A stretch of DNA of 64,000 nucleotides from Candidatus Cloacimonadales bacterium. Lineage in GTDB: Bacteria; Cloacimonadota; Cloacimonadia; Cloacimonadales; JAFGVF01. Position 1 is the first letter of the stretch, and the number at the start of each line of letters is the position of its first letter. The notes beneath the pieces were generated by a model. It was not told where the DNA came from. It searched no databases and worked only from the letters and a program-made list of their open reading frames with translations. The DNA lies in NCBI GenBank assembly GCA_963677495.2, contig CAXXOU010000002.1, positions 256,001 through 320,000 of the forward strand, written 5' to 3'. The translations under genes and the position numbers were made by a program. Positions 47,671-56,250 of the stretch are shown one piece after another.

Positions 47671-48081
47671 AGTTATATACCGGGAACGCGGACATCCTGT
47701 CTGCTGTAAAACGACTCTCCGGGTCGTTTATTCCCCTCTCACAGAGGGGTGGCGTGAAACGACGGGGTGTTGAAACTTCGGTCGAGACAACTAATCTACT
47801 ACGACCGTATTTTCTTTTGTACTGCAACTCCCCTGAGTTGCTGTGACGACGAAGTCGGCAATATTTTATGGCAATCCAGTTAATTTTAGTTTCACTCCTC
47901 TGTAACACTACCAAACCCTTTCCCCATCTAACCCTATCACTTTCGAGTCCAAGTCCTATTATCTGATAACAACATTTGAATAGGGTTTCAATAGGTGTCT
48001 CTCACCTGAGTATTAACAATTGCAGCAGAGCAATCAATGCAGTATGAACCTGCTAACACATCCAATCCTATGCAGTCTCTA

Positions 48082-48217
48082 TGCCCTATCATAATAAGAG
48101 ATAAAAAACTATCAGTTTCTGCCCCAAAACATGTCACTCTCTTGTCAATTTCCCCCGGAGTTGCCCAAGAGACTCCCAAAAACCGATGTCCTGAGTCTAA
48201 GTAATTATGATAGAGCA
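48082..48217. mobile_element. MITE-like element, copy 2 (inverted relative to 12634-12777)
   Basis: IR TGCCCTATCATAAT / ATTATGATAGAGCA. Internal GCCCAAGAGACTCCC is the reverse complement of GGGAGTCTCTTGGGC in copy 1. Confidence 0.65.
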
Positions 48218-48350
48218 ATGAATGGGGAAAAGTATTGTTTAAACTCATTATTGAATGCTACACGAAAACATCTCGAAATAGAAATGATTGATTGACATGG
48301 AAAGGAAAGATTGTAGGAATGGTAAAATACGATTCCATAAAGGGGTATAA

Positions 48351-50147
48351 ATGACTGAATTACATAAACAGACATCGATAAATATACAAGAAAAAGCGAA
48401 TATGATTTGGAATATCGCTGATATTATCCAGGGAACTTTCAAACCACATCAATATGGATTAGTGATACTTCCCTTCACAGTTATAAAGAGATTAAATGAC
48501 ACACTTGCAACAACCAAAGAGAAGGTTTTAGAGACTTATGAAAAGGTGAAGCATTTAGAAGTTAGAGATGGATTTTTGGAGAAAGCTTCCGGGTACTCTT
48601 TCTATAACACGAGTAAGTTCACCTTTGAGAATCTGGTAAATGATTCTGAGAACATTGAAGATAACTTCAAAGCTTTTCTGGGTGGCTTCTCTGAGAATGT
48701 GCAGGATATAATTAAGAACTTCGATTTCATTGGAACACTTAAGAAGTTAGTGGGTTCTACTAAGCATGAGGACAAACTGTTCTATGTGATTCAGGAGTTT
48801 AATAAGCCCCAATCATATCTTGGGATTGATAAGATAACTACTGTGGATATGGGTTATGTGTTTGAGGAGCTTGTGCGTAAGTTCTCAGAGAGCTATGATG
48901 AAGATGCTGGGCAACACTTTACGAGTAGAGATATTATCTACACAATGACTGATCTACTCACAGCAGAGGAGGAAAACACTCTTATTGAAGAGGGTGTTGT
49001 TAAAACGGTTTATGATATGGCTATGGGAACGAGTCAGATGCTTACATGTATGGAGGAAAGGCTCACGCAACTGGATTCAGATGCAGAAGTTACATCTTTC
49101 GGACAGGAGATAAACCATGAGACCTATTCTATTGCTAAATCAGATGCGATAATCAAAGGGAGTTCGGCTCAGAATATGCGTCTGGGTGATACACTTGCCA
49201 ATGACCGGTTTGAAGGCTTTGAGTTTGATTACATTATCTCTAATCCACCCTTTGGAAGAGATTGGAAGTCAGCTAAGAAGTTGGTAGAAGCTGAACATAA
49301 GAAGGGCGAAGATGGCAGGTTTGCTCCCGGCTTACCAAAGATATCTGACGGACAGATGCTTTTCACAATGAATGGAATTAAGAAGCTGAAAGATACCGGA
49401 AAGATGGCAATTATCCATAATGGGTCTCCCCTCTTTACAGGAGATGCAGGCTCAGGACCTTCTGAGATTAGAAGGTATATAATTGAAAATGACTGGTTAG
49501 AAGCGATTGTGCAGTTACCCAATGATGTGTTCTACAATACCGGGATTAGTACCTATATCTGGATTATCTCTAAAGAGAAACCGACTCACAGAGTTGGGAA
49601 GATACAACTTATTGATGCTTCCAAGATGTTTGAGAAACGCAGGAAGTCGATTGGGAATAAAAGAGTTGATATTACAGTTGATTGCAGAGGTGCTATTGTT
49701 AAGGCTTTCGGTGACTTCATGGATAAGCTCTATGAATATGAGAACGGTAAACAAGTTGAGTCCCGTATCTTTGAGAATGAGGAGTTTGGCTATTACAAGA
49801 TTACAGTTGAGTCTCCCGAACTTGATGAGCAGGGCAATAAGGTCTTAAAGAAGGGAAAACCTGTTCCTGATAAGAAGAAGAAAGACACTGAGAATGTGCC
49901 GATGCAGAAAGATCGAGATGAGAGAACAGTTATTGATGAGTATTTCCAAAAAGAGGTTATCCCCTATAATCCTGATGCCTGGGTTGATTACAAGAAAACC
50001 AAGGTTGGCTATGAAATCCCCTTTACGCGTCACTTCTATAAGTATGTTGCTCCTGAACCTTCCGAGAAGATAGCTGAACGCATAAACGCTTTAGAGTCTG
50101 AACTTATGACATCCCTTAAATCTCTCTTCTCCGATGAGGAGGAATAA
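48351..50147 (+). CDS. hsdM: Type I R-M methyltransferase subunit
   Basis: IWNIAD, GQHFTSRD, YDMAMGT, GQEIN, NPPF (N6-adenine MTase), FYNTGI. Confidence 0.95.
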   Translation: MTELHKQTSINIQEKANMIWNIADIIQGTFKPHQYGLVILPFTVIKRLNDTLATTKEKVLETYEKVKHLEVRDGFLEKASGYSFYNTSKFTFENLVNDSENIEDNFKAFLGGFSENVQDIIKNFDFIGTLKKLVGSTKHEDKLFYVIQEFNKPQSYLGIDKITTVDMGYVFEELVRKFSESYDEDAGQHFTSRDIIYTMTDLLTAEEENTLIEEGVVKTVYDMAMGTSQMLTCMEERLTQLDSDAEVTSFGQEINHETYSIAKSDAIIKGSSAQNMRLGDTLANDRFEGFEFDYIISNPPFGRDWKSAKKLVEAEHKKGEDGRFAPGLPKISDGQMLFTMNGIKKLKDTGKMAIIHNGSPLFTGDAGSGPSEIRRYIIENDWLEAIVQLPNDVFYNTGISTYIWIISKEKPTHRVGKIQLIDASKMFEKRRKSIGNKRVDITVDCRGAIVKAFGDFMDKLYEYENGKQVESRIFENEEFGYYKITVESPELDEQGNKVLKKGKPVPDKKKKDTENVPMQKDRDERTVIDEYFQKEVIPYNPDAWVDYKKTKVGYEIPFTRHFYKYVAPEPSEKIAERINALESELMTSLKSLFSDEEE

Positions 50148-51391
50148 TGCCTCGTAAGATGAAAGATAGTGGGATTGAATGGATTGGAGAGATTCCGGAA
50201 GATTGGCGGTTAGTAAAATTTAAGAGGTTTGCTAAAAGTGGCATGGGGGCAACAATATTAAAAGAAAACCTACTACCAGATGATTCATCAGATGATAGAA
50301 TCCCAATTTACAGTGCAACCAATACTGATAAAGTATTTGGTTATATCTCAGATTCTGTAGTAAAACTAAAGAAGAATGACTTTGTTATTCCAGCAAGAGG
50401 AAACTCAATTGGATATATAACCTTAGTAAGGGATCAAATAGCTACATGTACACAAACAACAATATACAGTAAAATTAGTAATATTAACCATAAGTTTTTA
50501 TTCTACTGTGGGTATGGTCTTAAAGATTATTGGTTTGAGTTTGACCAAACAGCTATACCACAAATTACTGTGAAGCAGGTGGATAATAATTTTGTTCCTG
50601 TACCAGATAAAATTGAGCAAACCCGAATAGCCAACTACTTAGACCGAAAGGTGGCATTGATAGATTCGATAATTGAGAAGACAAAGCAGACAATTGAGGA
50701 GTATAAGGCATATAAACAGTCACTGATAACTGAGGTTGTTACCAAAGGACTCAATAAAGATGCCAAGATGAAGGACTCCGGAATTGAATGGATTGGGGAG
50801 ATTCCGGAGGATTGGGAAGTTGTTAACCCCAGAAGATTTTTTACTGTTAGAAGAGATAGAGCTAGTATAAATGATCAACAACTTACATCATCTCAGAAAT
50901 ATGGAATTGTTACTCAAAAAGAATTTATGGAAATTGAATCAAAAAGAGTTGTTGTTGTTCAAAAGAATTATGCAATACTTAAAAAAGTATTAAGAAATGA
51001 CTTTATAATAAGTATGAGAAGCTTTCAAGGGGGTCTTGAACTAAGTGGTAAAGAAGGTTCTATAAGTTCAGCCTATGTCGTAATAACTCCTAATGAAAAA
51101 ATCTTTAGTAAGTTTTATAAGTGGTTTTTCAAATCAGTCAAGTACATTGATGCATTACAAAGCACATCCAATCTTGTTAGAGATGGTCAAGCAATGCGAT
51201 TTTCTAACTTTACTCAGATACCAATTGTTTTGTTACCATTAGCTGTTCAAGCTTTCTTAAGTGAATACTTAGAAAATATAACATATAGAATAAATATAAT
51301 AATTCTAAAAAAACAACAACTAATCACAGAATTGGAAAACTACAAGAAGTCATTAATCTATGAAGTGGTAACTGGTAAGAAAGAGGTGTAG
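50147..51391 (+). CDS. hsdS: Type I R-M specificity subunit
   Basis: Two conserved MKDSGIEWIGEIPEDW repeats (50159, 50768), each followed by a variable TRD. EQTRIANYLD and SLI.EVVT helices. Confidence 0.95.
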   Translation: MPRKMKDSGIEWIGEIPEDWRLVKFKRFAKSGMGATILKENLLPDDSSDDRIPIYSATNTDKVFGYISDSVVKLKKNDFVIPARGNSIGYITLVRDQIATCTQTTIYSKISNINHKFLFYCGYGLKDYWFEFDQTAIPQITVKQVDNNFVPVPDKIEQTRIANYLDRKVALIDSIIEKTKQTIEEYKAYKQSLITEVVTKGLNKDAKMKDSGIEWIGEIPEDWEVVNPRRFFTVRRDRASINDQQLTSSQKYGIVTQKEFMEIESKRVVVVQKNYAILKKVLRNDFIISMRSFQGGLELSGKEGSISSAYVVITPNEKIFSKFYKWFFKSVKYIDALQSTSNLVRDGQAMRFSNFTQIPIVLLPLAVQAFLSEYLENITYRINIIILKKQQLITELENYKKSLIYEVVTGKKEV

Positions 51392-51394
51392 GAT

Positions 51395-54300
51395 ATGAGT
51401 ATTGAGCGGACTGAAAAGCGGTTTGAAGCGGATATAGAGGATTATCTATTAAATGAGGGCGGTTATAGAACAGCCAACAAAGATAATTATGATGCCGGAA
51501 AAGCAATTAATCTGACTGAGTTGATTGGCTTTATTAAAGATACCCAGCCGAAAATGTGGGAACGCTATGAGAAAACCTATGGTGATGAGGTTGAGAAGAA
51601 ACTCTTCAAACGCTTTAACGAAGAGGTAAATCATCATGGTCTCTTGCATGTTCTTAGAAACGGGATAAATGACAGAGGAGTTAAGTTCAAGCTTGCTTAC
51701 TTTAAACCGGAATCAGGTCTTAACCATAAGCTCATAGATAGATATAACCTAAACAGATTAAGCTTAACCAGACAGTTCTACTATTCAACCGAGAATAGGA
51801 ACAGCATTGATATGGTGCTCTCCCTAAACGGGATTCCTATTGTTGCTCTGGAACTAAAGAACCAGTTAACCGGGCAATCGGTAGAGAATGGTAAATCGCA
51901 ATACTGCTACGATAGAAACCCACGTGAGTTTTGTTTTAACTTCAATAAACGTATTCTTGTCTATTTTGCTGTTGACCTTTACAATGTAGAGATGACTACC
52001 CGATTACAGGGTAAAGATACCTATTCCCTCCCTTTCAATCAAGGCTCAAACGGTGCCGGGAATGTGGGTGGAGTCGGTAATCCCGAGAACCCAAACGGAT
52101 ATGCAACCTCCTATCTCTGGGAAAAGGTTCTGCATAAAGATGCCTTGATGAATATACTCCATAGGTTTATCCATCTCAGTAAAGAGAAGAAATCTACAAA
52201 ACTAATCTTCCCCCGCTATCACCAGCTTGATGTTGTTACAAAGCTTATTGCAGATGTAAAAGAAAACGGCTCAGGGCACAACTACCTTGTCCAACATAGT
52301 GCGGGGTCGGGTAAATCCAACTCCATTGCCTGGACTTGCTATAGACTCGCAAGCTTGCATGATGAGCATGACAATAATATCTTCACATCTGTTATTGTTG
52401 TAACTGATAGACGGGTATTGGATAGTCAGTTGCAGGAGACAATCTCAGCGTTTGACCATAAGTTTGGGCTTGTAGAAACGATTGGCGAGGGTAAAAGCTC
52501 CAAAGATCTGAGGGATGCCATAAACTCGGGGAAGAAGATAATTGTTACAACCCTACAGAAGTTCCCTGTAATCTATAAAGAGGTTGATGACAATACCGGC
52601 AAACGCTTTGCTATTATTGTTGATGAAGCTCATAGCTCTCAGACAGGTTCATCTGCCCAGAAACTAAAGACTGCTCTTGCTGATACTGAGGATGCTAGAA
52701 ATGAGTATGCCGAATTAATAGATGAAGATGAGATAGAAGATTTTGAAGATAAGATTGTGAAAGAGATGCTGAGTCATGGCAAACATAAGAACCTCTCCTT
52801 CTTTGCTTTTACGGCGACACCTAAACAGAAGACGCTGGAGATGTTTGGTGAGAAGATGAAAGACGGAACTTTCAGACCTTTCCATGTATATTCGATGAGG
52901 CAGGCGATAGAAGAGGGCTTTATCCTTGATGTACTGAAGAACTATATGACTTATGAGACTTGCTATAAAATAGCAAAGAACTCACCCGATAACCCTGAAC
53001 TGGAAGAGTCGCAAACCAGAAGAGCTATAAGAAGATTTGAATCCTTGCATGATTATAACCTGCAACAAAAGACTATGGTGATGGTTGAAAGCTTTAGAGA
53101 GAATACTGCGAACAAGATTATGGGTAAAGCGAAAGCAATGGTTGTTACTCCTTCACGCATGCACGCTGTTAGATACTATCAGCAGTTTGTGAACTATATT
53201 AAGCTCAAAGGCTATGAAATTGGAGTGCTTGTTGCATTTTCCGGTACAGTTGATGATAAAGGTGAAGAATATACGGAAGTTGGGCTTAATACAAAGGCAA
53301 ATGGTGAAAGGATTAGTGAGAAACAACTCCCCAATGCCTTTCATAGTGATAAATACCAAATATTGATTGTAGCGGATAAATATCAGACCGGTTTCGATGA
53401 ACCCCTGTTGCATACTATGTTTGTTGATAAACCTTTAAAAGGTGTGAAAGCAGTCCAAACGCTGTCTCGCTTGAATAGGATAGCTAAAGGTAAGAATGAT
53501 ACCTTTATTATGGACTTTGCAAACGAAGCTGAGGATATTAAGGCTTCCTTCCAACCCTACTTTGAAGAAACACTGCTTGATGAAGAGATTAATGTGAACC
53601 TTATCTATGATACCCGTACTAATCTGCATGCTATGATGCTGTATAACGAATCTGATATTGAAACATTTAACAAGATATATTATAAATCAGGGAAACAATC
53701 ACCAACTGATTTGGGAAAGATAACAAGTAGGTTTAAACCAATTATTGAATCCTACAACAGATTAGACGATGATAATAGGTTCAAGTTCAAGAAAGGTGTG
53801 CGAAACTTTGTTAAATGGTATGCCTATATCATCCAAATCGTGCGGATGTTTGATAAAGAACTGCATAGAGAGTATAACTTCCTTACTTATTTGAATAAGC
53901 TTTTGCCGAATGATGTGCGTGAAGGTGTGCATATAGATGATAAGATTAAGTTGGAATACTATAAACTTGATAAGACCTACGAGGGTGATATTGTGCTTGA
54001 GCAAGCATCGTACGACAAGACATTGGTGAATCCGAAGACAGTTGATGCCGGTCAGAAACAAGACCCTAAAAGTGAGTTGTTAGATGTAATAATTGATCAG
54101 GTTAATCAACGCTTTAGTGGAAAGTTTAGTGAAGCTGACAGAGTGATAGTTGAGACATTATTGGGTAAAGTTGTGTTTGGCAATGAGAAGCTGAGAAAGA
54201 AATGGAAGAAACAAGCTAAAAACAATAACGCTGAGATCTTCCAGGATAGTATCTTTCCCAAGATATTCAAAGATATTGCAAATGATTGCTATGTTGAACA

Positions 54301-54400
54301 GACAAATGCTTTCACAAAACTCTTTGAGAACAAAGAGTTTTATGATATTGTAATGGCTGAGATTGGGAGAGAGGTATATAGACAGTTGAGGAATGATTAA
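51395..54400 (+). CDS. hsdR: Type I R-M restriction subunit
   Basis: IDMVLSLNGIPIVALELKN nuclease motif, QHSAGSGKS Walker A, DEAH, FTATP, QTGFDEP, QTLSRLNR. Confidence 0.96.
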   Translation: MSIERTEKRFEADIEDYLLNEGGYRTANKDNYDAGKAINLTELIGFIKDTQPKMWERYEKTYGDEVEKKLFKRFNEEVNHHGLLHVLRNGINDRGVKFKLAYFKPESGLNHKLIDRYNLNRLSLTRQFYYSTENRNSIDMVLSLNGIPIVALELKNQLTGQSVENGKSQYCYDRNPREFCFNFNKRILVYFAVDLYNVEMTTRLQGKDTYSLPFNQGSNGAGNVGGVGNPENPNGYATSYLWEKVLHKDALMNILHRFIHLSKEKKSTKLIFPRYHQLDVVTKLIADVKENGSGHNYLVQHSAGSGKSNSIAWTCYRLASLHDEHDNNIFTSVIVVTDRRVLDSQLQETISAFDHKFGLVETIGEGKSSKDLRDAINSGKKIIVTTLQKFPVIYKEVDDNTGKRFAIIVDEAHSSQTGSSAQKLKTALADTEDARNEYAELIDEDEIEDFEDKIVKEMLSHGKHKNLSFFAFTATPKQKTLEMFGEKMKDGTFRPFHVYSMRQAIEEGFILDVLKNYMTYETCYKIAKNSPDNPELEESQTRRAIRRFESLHDYNLQQKTMVMVESFRENTANKIMGKAKAMVVTPSRMHAVRYYQQFVNYIKLKGYEIGVLVAFSGTVDDKGEEYTEVGLNTKANGERISEKQLPNAFHSDKYQILIVADKYQTGFDEPLLHTMFVDKPLKGVKAVQTLSRLNRIAKGKNDTFIMDFANEAEDIKASFQPYFEETLLDEEINVNLIYDTRTNLHAMMLYNESDIETFNKIYYKSGKQSPTDLGKITSRFKPIIESYNRLDDDNRFKFKKGVRNFVKWYAYIIQIVRMFDKELHREYNFLTYLNKLLPNDVREGVHIDDKIKLEYYKLDKTYEGDIVLEQASYDKTLVNPKTVDAGQKQDPKSELLDVIIDQVNQRFSGKFSEADRVIVETLLGKVVFGNEKLRKKWKKQAKNNNAEIFQDSIFPKIFKDIANDCYVEQTNAFTKLFENKEFYDIVMAEIGREVYRQLRND

Positions 54401-54437: not shown

Positions 54438-55301
54438 ATGAACACTTTTGATTTCAACAATACAACAACAGATTACAGTGGTTATCTTGATTTCATCAAT
54501 CTATATCACCTTCATTCTAAAAAAACAGATACACTCAATTCATTAGATATATATAATTGGTTTGATGCAAATTTATGCTCACCATTGGGAGCCATTCTTG
54601 ATTTATTGCAGAGTCAAGATGTTGATATGGAGTTTAACCAGATTGAAAGTGGTGCAATGCGGATAATGCAAAAGAATGACTTTCTTTCGTATTATGGTTA
54701 TACAAGAAGGTATGATGAATTTGGCACTACTATTCGATATAGAAAATTCAAGCCAAATGATAACAAACTGTTTGCTAATTATGTAAAAGAAAATCTTTTA
54801 GAACATCCTGAAATGCCAAATATATCTATAGAATTAAAAATGAAGTTTATGGAGATTCTGACTGAACTATTCGAAAATGCACGAATGCATAGTGAAACTA
54901 AATCTGTTTATGCTTGTGGTCAGTTCTTTCCTAAAAAGCATGAAATCAAGTTCTCTTTGACTGATTCAGGGGTTGGATTTAGAAACAGAATCAACAGTAC
55001 TTTCCAAACAAGTCTAAAAGCTATCGATGCAATCGAATGGGCTTTAGTGGAAAGTCATTCAACTAAACAGAACACATCCGGTGGATTAGGATTGAGCATT
55101 TTAAAAGAATTTATTTGCCTAAATAGTGGACTGATTCAAATTGTCAGTGATAATGGATTTTATTCGATGAGTAAAGATGGTGTTTCAAGTAAAGAATACG
55201 GTAACCCCTTTCCGGGAACAATGATAAATCTGACTTTCCGGACTGATGACACAAACTCTTATTCTCTTGCTAACAAAGAAGAATTAGGTGACCTATTTTA
55301 G
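54438..55301 (+). CDS. GHKL/HATPase protein lacking an H-box (anti-sigma Ser/Thr-kinase-like) with a possible N-terminal STAS-like domain
   Basis: N-box ELFENARMHS, G1 LTDSGVG, G2 STK...GGLGL, G3 PGTMINLTF. No TM or HisKA domain. Confidence 0.75.
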   Translation: MNTFDFNNTTTDYSGYLDFINLYHLHSKKTDTLNSLDIYNWFDANLCSPLGAILDLLQSQDVDMEFNQIESGAMRIMQKNDFLSYYGYTRRYDEFGTTIRYRKFKPNDNKLFANYVKENLLEHPEMPNISIELKMKFMEILTELFENARMHSETKSVYACGQFFPKKHEIKFSLTDSGVGFRNRINSTFQTSLKAIDAIEWALVESHSTKQNTSGGLGLSILKEFICLNSGLIQIVSDNGFYSMSKDGVSSKEYGNPFPGTMINLTFRTDDTNSYSLANKEELGDLF

Positions 55302-55311
55302 GAGAAGATTG

Positions 55312-55659
55312 ATGAAAGACTTAAGAATCGAAATAATCAATATTGTTGGTAGTGAATACTGCATTGAAGCAGAAGATGGACAGTTAGTATATGAACAGAT
55401 TAGAAAAGCTATTGATAATGGTAATAAAATAATCCTATCTTTCAACAATGTTGAGATTTTAACTACCTCATTCCTCAATACAGCTGTAGGACAACTTTAT
55501 AAAGAGTATAAAGATGAACAAGTTAAAGAGATTATGTCCGTAGAGAACATGTCCCCATCTGATCAGGCAAAACTAAAAAGAGTAAATGATACCGCTAAGC
55601 TATACTATAAAGATCCTGATAGACTAAAGAGAAGCCTTGATGCTGTAATGGAAGATTGA
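55312..55659 (+). CDS. STAS-like (DUF4325-type) protein
   Basis: EDGQLVYEQI, IILSFNNVEILTTSFLNTAVGQL (STAS phospho-loop-like). ATG after GGAG. Confidence 0.78.
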   Translation: MKDLRIEIINIVGSEYCIEAEDGQLVYEQIRKAIDNGNKIILSFNNVEILTTSFLNTAVGQLYKEYKDEQVKEIMSVENMSPSDQAKLKRVNDTAKLYYKDPDRLKRSLDAVMED

Positions 55660-55660
55660 T

Positions 55661-56206
55661 ATGAAAAGGTACTCCTTAAAAGATGTAGATAGTGTAAAAG
55701 ATAGGAGAATCTTTTTTGATACTAATATCCTTATCTTTCTTTTTGGTACACATACTCAAGATAGATATAGACAAAACCTATATGCTAAACTCTACAAGAT
55801 GTTATTGAGTCCTAAGAGCTTATTCTACGTCGACTTTATAGTTGTTTCAGAATTTATTAACAGACTAAGCCGTGTAGAATATGAGAATTATTTAAATTTC
55901 CATAATTTGCAGAGAAGTGAATTCTCATATAAAAAATATAGAAATACAGATGAAGGTACTACAACCATCAAAGGAATCTATTCAACTGCAATAGATGATA
56001 TTTTAAATAAATTCCTAATTACTGGAAAGCAATTTATAAGAAAAGATCTTGAAAGTTTCCTACAAATTAATGACTTAGATTTTTCCGATAAAGCAATTGA
56101 ACTGGTTTGTAAAGAGAATAACTTTGTGTTATTCACTGATGATAGAGACTTTGCTGATTCAGATATAGATATCCTAAGTGCCAATGGAAGCATCGTTGAA
56201 CAATAG
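55661..56206 (+). CDS. PIN-domain ribonuclease
   Basis: IFFDTNILI, VVSEFIN, DFSDKAI, LFTDDRDF: the acidic PIN active-site residues are present. Confidence 0.85.
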   Translation: MKRYSLKDVDSVKDRRIFFDTNILIFLFGTHTQDRYRQNLYAKLYKMLLSPKSLFYVDFIVVSEFINRLSRVEYENYLNFHNLQRSEFSYKKYRNTDEGTTTIKGIYSTAIDDILNKFLITGKQFIRKDLESFLQINDLDFSDKAIELVCKENNFVLFTDDRDFADSDIDILSANGSIVEQ

Positions 56207-56223
56207 AATATTAATAACTCTCT

Positions 56224-56250
56224 AGGTCGTTTCAAGCGACCTTTCCTTAT
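56224..56250 (+). terminator. Probable terminator closing the R-M/PIN operon
   Basis: AGGTCGTT-TCA-AGCGACCT then TTCCTT. Confidence 0.5.

Follow-up and report, generated by a model that had tools for sequence, protein, structure and literature searches.

A divergent, probable VapKSC toxin-antitoxin locus behind the hsdR gene of a type I restriction-modification operon in a Candidatus Cloacimonadales bacterium

The anti-phage system VapKSC was described for Escherichia sp. E4736 (PDB 9Z7O; Chambers et al., EMBO J 2026, PMC13373217), and the statements on it given here follow the portions of that paper available to us. Toxicity of its PIN-domain protein VapC requires D28, and VapC is neutralised by VapS, an activity abolished by the substitution S48E or by deletion of the C-terminal helix. 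The vapKSC genes conferred about 2-log protection against phage Bas42, which was lost in the D28A, S48A and F54A mutants; protection was shown with this one phage only, in an E. coli free of restriction-modification (R-M) systems, and is possibly exerted via a global stress response, as the authors remark. VapK was insoluble in their hands, and its kinase activity, its activation by ssDNA and the RNA target are inferred in that work, activation by ssDNA having been demonstrated biochemically only for the relative CapK. Within 10 kb, 64% of the 289 VapKSC loci have no defence neighbour. For the related capKS genes, 88 of 443 loci are downstream of an R-M system, and coupling to R-M is discussed in the main text for capKS only.

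Other effectors are known from type I R-M loci. According to the parts of the respective sources at hand, PrrC resides within a type IC locus and becomes active when Stp inhibits EcoPrrI (PMC12707154), and the site between hsdS and hsdR is a described hotspot for cargo such as DarTG2 and other gene pairs (PMC12255303). The coupling of PIN.4-family genes to DUF4325 genes was also noted earlier (Matelska et al. 2017, PMC5499597); the table row concerned, as far as that source was accessible, gives neither a mechanism nor a kinase.

The window analysed here is a stretch of 64,000 nt from a Candidatus Cloacimonadales bacterium, in which a kinase gene, a STAS gene and a PIN gene follow a type I R-M operon. 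The features of the region are as follows:

48351..50147, plus strand: hsdM, type I methyltransferase (Pfam N6_Mtase and HsdM_N; PADLOC MTase_I, 8.5e-222)
50147..51391, plus strand: hsdS, type I specificity subunit (Pfam Methylase_S, two copies; PADLOC Specificity_I)
51395..54400, plus strand: hsdR, type I restriction subunit, an open frame (Pfam HSDR_N, ResIII and SWI2_SNF2; Walker A and DEAH motifs)
54438..55301, plus strand: vapK, 287 aa, STAS-fold domain (aa 1–88) joined to a GHKL kinase domain of the SpoIIAB/RsbW type (aa ~96–272)
55312..55659, plus strand: vapS, 115 aa, putative antitoxin, with a DUF4325 STAS domain and a helical extension at the C-terminus; Thr52 as predicted phospho-acceptor
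55661..56206, plus strand: vapC, 181 aa, PIN-domain toxin and predicted RNase; acidic set D20, E64, D140, D143, D161 and D163 intact
56224..56242, plus strand: intrinsic-terminator-like hairpin, 17 nt past the vapC stop (-9.6 kcal/mol)

The original prediction had placed three coupled genes behind hsdR, and its coordinates were reproduced: vapK starts at 54438, 37 nt past the end of hsdR at 54400, the gaps between vapK and vapS and between vapS and vapC are 10 and 1 nt, respectively, and a chance cluster was ruled out by the conserved gene order described below. The start of vapS was assigned to the ATG at 55312, where an upstream AGGAG overlaps the vapK stop and where 71 of 77 VapS relatives have Met at the equivalent position; the GTG at 55288, taken as the vapS start by the ORF finder, represents an upstream in-frame extension. 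The hairpin proposed to end the operon is also present, with an 8-bp stem and a U-rich tail (z=-3.05; an equally good fold in 3 of 200 shuffles), and terminator-like matches across the whole region, 2 against a shuffle mean of 5.1, were not above chance. The same holds for a promoter-like site inside hsdR (54324–54351), with 38 such sites found and 31.5 +/- 5.8 expected. This site, in the 3'-terminal part of hsdR some 87 nt before vapK, is overlapped by a 15-nt inverted repeat (54312–54351; 93% complementary, 4-nt loop), and the paralogous hsdR of this genome has a different sequence there; the repeat could act as an internal promoter or operator, or could have arisen by chance.

The GC contents of vapK, vapS and vapC are 0.33, 0.33 and 0.29, compared to a genome mean of 0.37. 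Since ARAGORN and Rfam detected no RNA gene in the window, a tRNA or tmRNA integration site is absent, and no direct repeats were found to flank the hsd-vap block. In the complete genome of a member of the same genus, the two genes flanking the block in the window are ~1.4 Mb apart, with no hsd or vap genes at either of the flanking-gene regions examined; comparison with this genome therefore yielded no insertion boundaries. An intergenic sequence of ~44 nt located 5' of hsdM (47817–47861) recurs throughout the genome at 86–98% identity, often in arrays with a period of ~190–194 nt (e.g. 8 copies at positions 182327–183727 of contig C2), and has no match in Rfam. The intergenic pieces 47705–47770, 47930–48034 and 48077–48230 are dispersed repeats as well.

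The vapK product had been predicted to be a soluble HATPase devoid of a phospho-His domain. Its GHKL residues are indeed kept and there is no DHp domain, but an N-terminal STAS-fold domain of 88 residues had been overlooked. Pfam HATPase_c matched it only weakly (E=1.8e-4, under the cut-off), and its AF2 model (pLDDT 88.6) consists of two domains. Aligned by VIA-align, aa 1–88 match the STAS protein 1sbo_A (Z=9.0, rmsd 2.2, 87 residues aligned) and aa 96–272 match SpoIIAB 1l0o_A (Z=12.2, rmsd 2.9, 134 residues aligned), with 6m36_A giving Z=9.8; the protein is thus a STAS-GHKL kinase with no His-phosphotransfer domain. Assignment as a sensor histidine kinase was rejected, since the NCBIfam matches were far under the cut-off and covered the ATPase part only, while the N-terminus has a STAS fold instead of DHp. 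In the relatives, the GHKL residues N147, D176, G178, G180, G215/G216/G218 and G260 are almost invariant, the N147 position being N in all 79 aligned relatives, and of the 78 relatives having a residue at the W41 position, 77 have W or F. The two lysines of the predicted ssDNA groove are less uniform: among the 79 aligned proteins, position 166 is K in 16 and R in 10, and position 167 is K in 54 and R in 5. Mapping by eye, rather than by a computed alignment, to Appendix Table S2 of Chambers et al., in which the numbering is 5 lower than that of the text, made W41 the equivalent of Escherichia VapK F54 (the putative ssDNA-stacking aromatic), N147 that of N160, and K166/K167 those of K180/K181.

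The STAS-like nature proposed for the second protein was borne out by Pfam (DUF4325, E=4.5e-16) and by a PDB search, in which residues 5–114 matched Escherichia VapS 9z7o_A (E=1.8e-13; next match E=0.88); a profile of the VapS family gave E=1.2e-23 with the same chain. After subtracting an 18-residue tag, T52 aligns to S48 of Escherichia VapS. This position is occupied by T in 47 and by S in 30 of the 77 VapS relatives, following a Thr at position 51 in all 77. Of the TTS loop in which the acceptor had been predicted to lie, Thr52 is hence retained as the candidate; Ser53 was discarded, since this position is Ala in 77 of 77 relatives and Ser in the window's copy. It had further been stated that the operon has no VapB-type antitoxin and no sigma factor. 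No sigma factor gene is present in the operon; an antitoxin, on the other hand, would be provided by the STAS protein itself, judging from its homology to VapS.

The third protein, predicted to be a PIN nuclease with intact acidic residues, matched Pfam PIN (E=3.4e-6), and its D20, E64, D140, D143, D161 and D163 show no variation in either of two alignments (58 and 56 sequences), with D20 as the counterpart of Escherichia VapC D28. The Escherichia VapC chain 9z7o_C was missed by the single PIN sequence and by the narrow 58-sequence profile. It was the top PDB match (E=8.5e-16, profile positions 3–179; next E=0.013) of a broad PIN-family profile, built from the window's PIN protein and 55 of 150 listed representatives. 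The AF2 model of the protein (pLDDT 96.4) has FitB/VapC PIN folds as its nearest Foldseek matches; no chain of 9Z7O was returned from the structure library, which extends to 8 April 2026, and this is no evidence either way.

Complex prediction, a check proposed with the original prediction, supported a VapS-VapC pair with an ipSAE of 0.84, compared to 0.00 for the best control; of 157 solved complexes 116 attain the ipSAE mark, as do 2 of 215 mismatched pairs. Contact agreement between runs was at least 87% and partner pLDDT at least 87. Since a like complex (9Z7O) has already been solved, this result indicates likeness to it rather than binding by the window's copy. In the model VapS residues 51–54 contact VapC residues 26–28 and 42, with T52 inside the interface, and VapS is thus predicted to bind VapC with Thr51 to Ser53 at the interface. 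VapC of the window has G29 where 69 of 73 relatives have W, and residues 26, 105 and 160 are also atypical. In the window (55312–56206) as in a same-genus locus (L104:6775–7669), VapC residue 29 is Gly and VapS residue 53 is Ser, both positions being part of the predicted interface; these residues possibly form a lineage-specific compensated pair.

These comparisons identify the triad, as far as homology can, as a copy of VapKSC, so that a locus held to be unassignable to a named system would already have a name. Directly observed in the window are the order vapK-vapS-vapC, a STAS and GHKL VapK with no N-terminal HTH, a VapK aromatic (W41) and N-box Asn (N147), a VapS with the expected conserved Ser/Thr and C-terminal helical region, and a PIN protein that is homologous to Escherichia VapC and retains the catalytic Asp. 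What is established for this copy is thus the arrangement of the genes, the identity of their domains, the relatedness to the published proteins and the retention of key residues. Among plasmids, the kinase has a single match, on plasmid P5 of Deinococcus gobiensis I-0, a strain included in Dataset EV3 of Chambers et al. (PMC13373217); there the ATP-binding, STAS-like and PIN genes are in the same K-S-C order and their products share 31% (over 284 aa for the kinase), 30% and 28% identity with those of the window. PADLOC, a check that had been suggested, gave no match to any of the three proteins in PADLOC-DB 2.0, a database from 2023 that predates VapKSC. NCBIfam names none of the three genes.

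The Escherichia system and the triad share, besides gene order, a STAS-GHKL kinase with no HTH, a VapS with a C-terminal helix and no wHTH, a VapC-like PIN protein, and counterparts of F54, N160, K180/K181, S48 and D28. They differ in the acceptor (Ser48 in Escherichia, Thr52 as the predicted one here), are distant in sequence, 9z7o_C being reached only by the broad PIN profile, and differ in location, as the Escherichia system has no PADLOC neighbour in the paper's list while the window's triad lies behind hsdR. CapK/CapS have in common with it the pair of a STAS-GHKL kinase and a STAS substrate. However, the N-terminal HTH of CapK and the wHTH transcription repressor CapS (184 aa; PMC13373217, as available) are both absent from the window, where the output is a PIN toxin, the kinase starts directly with the STAS fold and the 115-aa STAS protein aligns end-to-end with VapS; the triad is therefore not a CapK/CapS pair. 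With SpoIIAB/SpoIIAA and RsbW/RsbV, the triad shares the GHKL Ser/Thr-kinase fold and a STAS substrate whose acceptor occupies the same loop, but its operon has no sigma factor or PP2C phosphatase gene, its kinase has a STAS domain of its own and its STAS protein is the putative antitoxin. PrrC and DarTG2 likewise represent toxic effectors in or beside hsd operons, although their proteins are unrelated to those of the triad; moreover, PrrC fires upon inhibition of its cognate enzyme, whereas VapKSC functions without R-M.

A first genome scan with the single kinase gave no relative among 46 candidates, and an alignment-based scan gave 217 candidate relatives, of which the best 80, biased to the close clade, were analysed. 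These best 80 of 217 come from many phyla, mostly Bacteroidota. As expected if the neighbourhood is conserved, a point raised by the original prediction, 73 of the 80 loci contain the full triad in the same order; 5 incomplete ones end at contig ends, and in two (L063 and L073) partners are missing although neighbouring DNA is present. Of 151 genomes sampled from the host phylum, 5 have a match to VapS, that of the window being one of them. One of 3 same-genus genomes contains the triad, at another chromosomal site with a contig end on its upstream side; its frames are open (77% and 52% identity) and it keeps the TTSF loop of VapS and Gly29 of VapC. In the kinase tree, the window's copy forms a long branch (1.55) with at most 48% identity to any row; its neighbour is from the host phylum Cloacimonadota, with no starred support. 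The patchy distribution and low GC content fit accessory defence cargo.

Several partial relatives were also encountered. Streptococcus phage Javan172 (L112:2950–4228) contains, near an integrase gene, a distant relative of vapK (30% identity) and, after it, a gene for a 114-aa protein; no full-size PIN gene is annotated downstream. A VapS-like gene at L117:1501–1845 has neither a kinase nor a PIN gene detected within 1.5 kb. Loci L073 and L118 have the kinase and STAS genes and no PIN match; in L073 these are followed by a 615-aa ORF, perhaps encoding another effector.

Type I hsd genes were searched for by phmmer with HsdM and HsdR of the window, BLASTP clustering and Pfam checks. They are present at at least 22 of the best 80 of 217 loci, a count that includes an hsdR start (L010) and an hsdS piece (L019) obtained by BLASTP clustering and not confirmed by Pfam at E<=1e-8; the other 58 have none in the flanking DNA examined. 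If only the 44 loci flanked by 5 kb or more in each direction are counted, 12 have a type I gene and 32 do not. The triad precedes hsdR in 16 of the 80 and is visibly located between hsdM/hsdS and hsdR in 13, the same slot as that of DarTG2-type cargo; in 10, the vapC stop overlaps or is within 8 nt of the hsdR start, and Eco57I/IIG-like enzymes are encoded at 9 further loci. A randomly placed stretch of comparable size would meet an hsd locus in 1.8% of cases, a baseline taken from this one genome and to be read with the non-independence of the related loci in mind. Adjacency of VapKSC to type I R-M is already on record, since RM_type_I is listed in 24 of the 289 rows of Dataset EV3 by our hand count (PMC13373217).

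In a kinase tree built by a quick method (81 rows, with L003 and L045 omitted as fragments), location before hsdR changed 9 times, at least 4 changes being forced by starred branches; the mean for shuffled labels was 10.9, and 85 of 500 shuffles were as low. The location is thus not clustered on the tree, and gains are indistinguishable from losses. HsdR of the window is only 22–26% identical to 12 full-length HsdRs located beside related triads and the gene order is different, which indicates that the hsd-vap association of the window is a separate one and that no single Hsd partner is conserved. For those 12 triads, the identities between kinases are correlated with those between HsdRs (rho 0.47 over 66 pairs that are not independent), suggestive of a degree of co-inheritance.

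Genes for RhuM, YhcG, Bro-N, GmrSD and DUF3800 proteins occupy the same hsd slots in the relatives' loci and in this genome. In a second type I locus of this genome (L107:6247–13375; contig C4 ~1090246–1097375), the paralogous HsdR is 85% identical and rhuM is located directly 3' of hsdR. The HsdS of this locus is different and its hsdM has no single open frame, being broken or mis-assembled; a 203-nt stretch of its hsdS is 96% identical to that of the window, a hint that the two hsdS genes may have recombined. In a third type I locus (L108:4096–13195; contig C1 ~374000–383200), Bro-N and DUF3800 genes are embedded, hsdR is followed by a YgjP-like gene, and an additional, partial hsdS lies upstream of hsdM.

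We consider it probable (about 0.8) that the triad represents a VapKSC toxin-antitoxin module at the end of a type I R-M operon. VapS would bind the VapC PIN toxin and keep it inactive, ssDNA arising from phage infection or DNA repair would likely activate VapK, phosphorylation of VapS on Thr52 by VapK would release VapC, and free VapC would likely cut RNA, thereby arresting the phage-infected cell. The earlier proposal that STAS phosphorylation gates a PIN toxin in an anti-phage module agrees with the published VapKSC model and with the predicted VapS-VapC complex. Toxicity, rescue and protection are known from the distant Escherichia homologue and are extended to the window's copy by analogy. 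Points against a VapKSC assignment are the long branch, the departures at VapC G29 and VapS S53 and the partial conservation of the groove lysines.

The long branch and the residues at VapC 29 and VapS 53, together with atypical VapC residues at positions 26, 105 and 160 and the broken kinases of relatives L003, L045, L063 and G031, could be taken as signs of a decaying, inactive copy. This is very improbable, because all three frames are open and of full length with the catalytic residues retained, and because the same-genus copy shares the TTSF loop and Gly29 in open frames, which points to a lineage trait rather than a result of decay. Slightly less improbable, yet still very unlikely, is a guard of the PrrC kind, in which the triad would be tied physically or functionally to the Hsd complex and fire when a phage anti-restriction protein blocks it. 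The EcoPrrI precedent and the 13 of the best 80 of 217 relatives inserted between hsdM/hsdS and hsdR, as well as the 10 with vapC adjoining or overlapping hsdR, are what such a guard would predict. However, the linkage is not obligate, 58 of the 80 relatives having no type I gene in the flanking DNA examined; no single Hsd partner is conserved; and the 85% identical paralogous hsdR of the same genome is followed by rhuM instead. The trigger suggested by the original prediction, inhibition of R-M, is likewise disfavoured, since the likely trigger in the published model is ssDNA and since, according to the portions of the paper available, an R-M-free E. coli was protected.

A general DNA-damage stress or addiction module, hitchhiking in R-M slots and stabilising the locus, with phage protection being a side effect or absent here, also seems unlikely, though less so than the PrrC-like guard. 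It is in line with the authors' remark on a global stress response, with the majority of published loci standing apart from other defence genes, with the use of the hsdS-hsdR hotspot by DarTG2 and other gene pairs, and with the RhuM, YhcG, Bro-N, GmrSD and DUF3800 genes in the same slots. In Escherichia, by contrast, phage protection requires all three key residues (PMC13373217, as available), and the biochemical switch would be identical under both readings, the difference lying only in the selective role. Under the preferred reading, a VapKSC module, the most likely role of the R-M operon is to provide transcription and a site for cargo, its presence not being needed for function. A further proposal, which we put forward tentatively and regard as rather unlikely, is that this clade has repeatedly come to serve type I operons as their second tier, in which the kinase would read ssDNA from resected HsdR cuts and thereby turn heavy or failed restriction into abortive infection, as a DNA-damage-coupled counterpart of PrrC; the genes would be co-transcribed with hsd, often translationally coupled to hsdR, and gained or lost many times beside unrelated HsdR lineages.

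With VapKSC already described, the main gain is a divergent copy of it, with a predicted Thr acceptor, in another lineage. Its genomic context represents a modest addition, at least 22 of the best 80 of 217 loci being at type I R-M operons compared to 24 of 289 in the published list. Native hsd-vapKSC operons would allow a direct test of whether ssDNA made by restriction triggers a later abortive defence, an idea that the authors, in the available text, put forward for CapKS only, and the clade of the window may provide the soluble VapK that they lacked.
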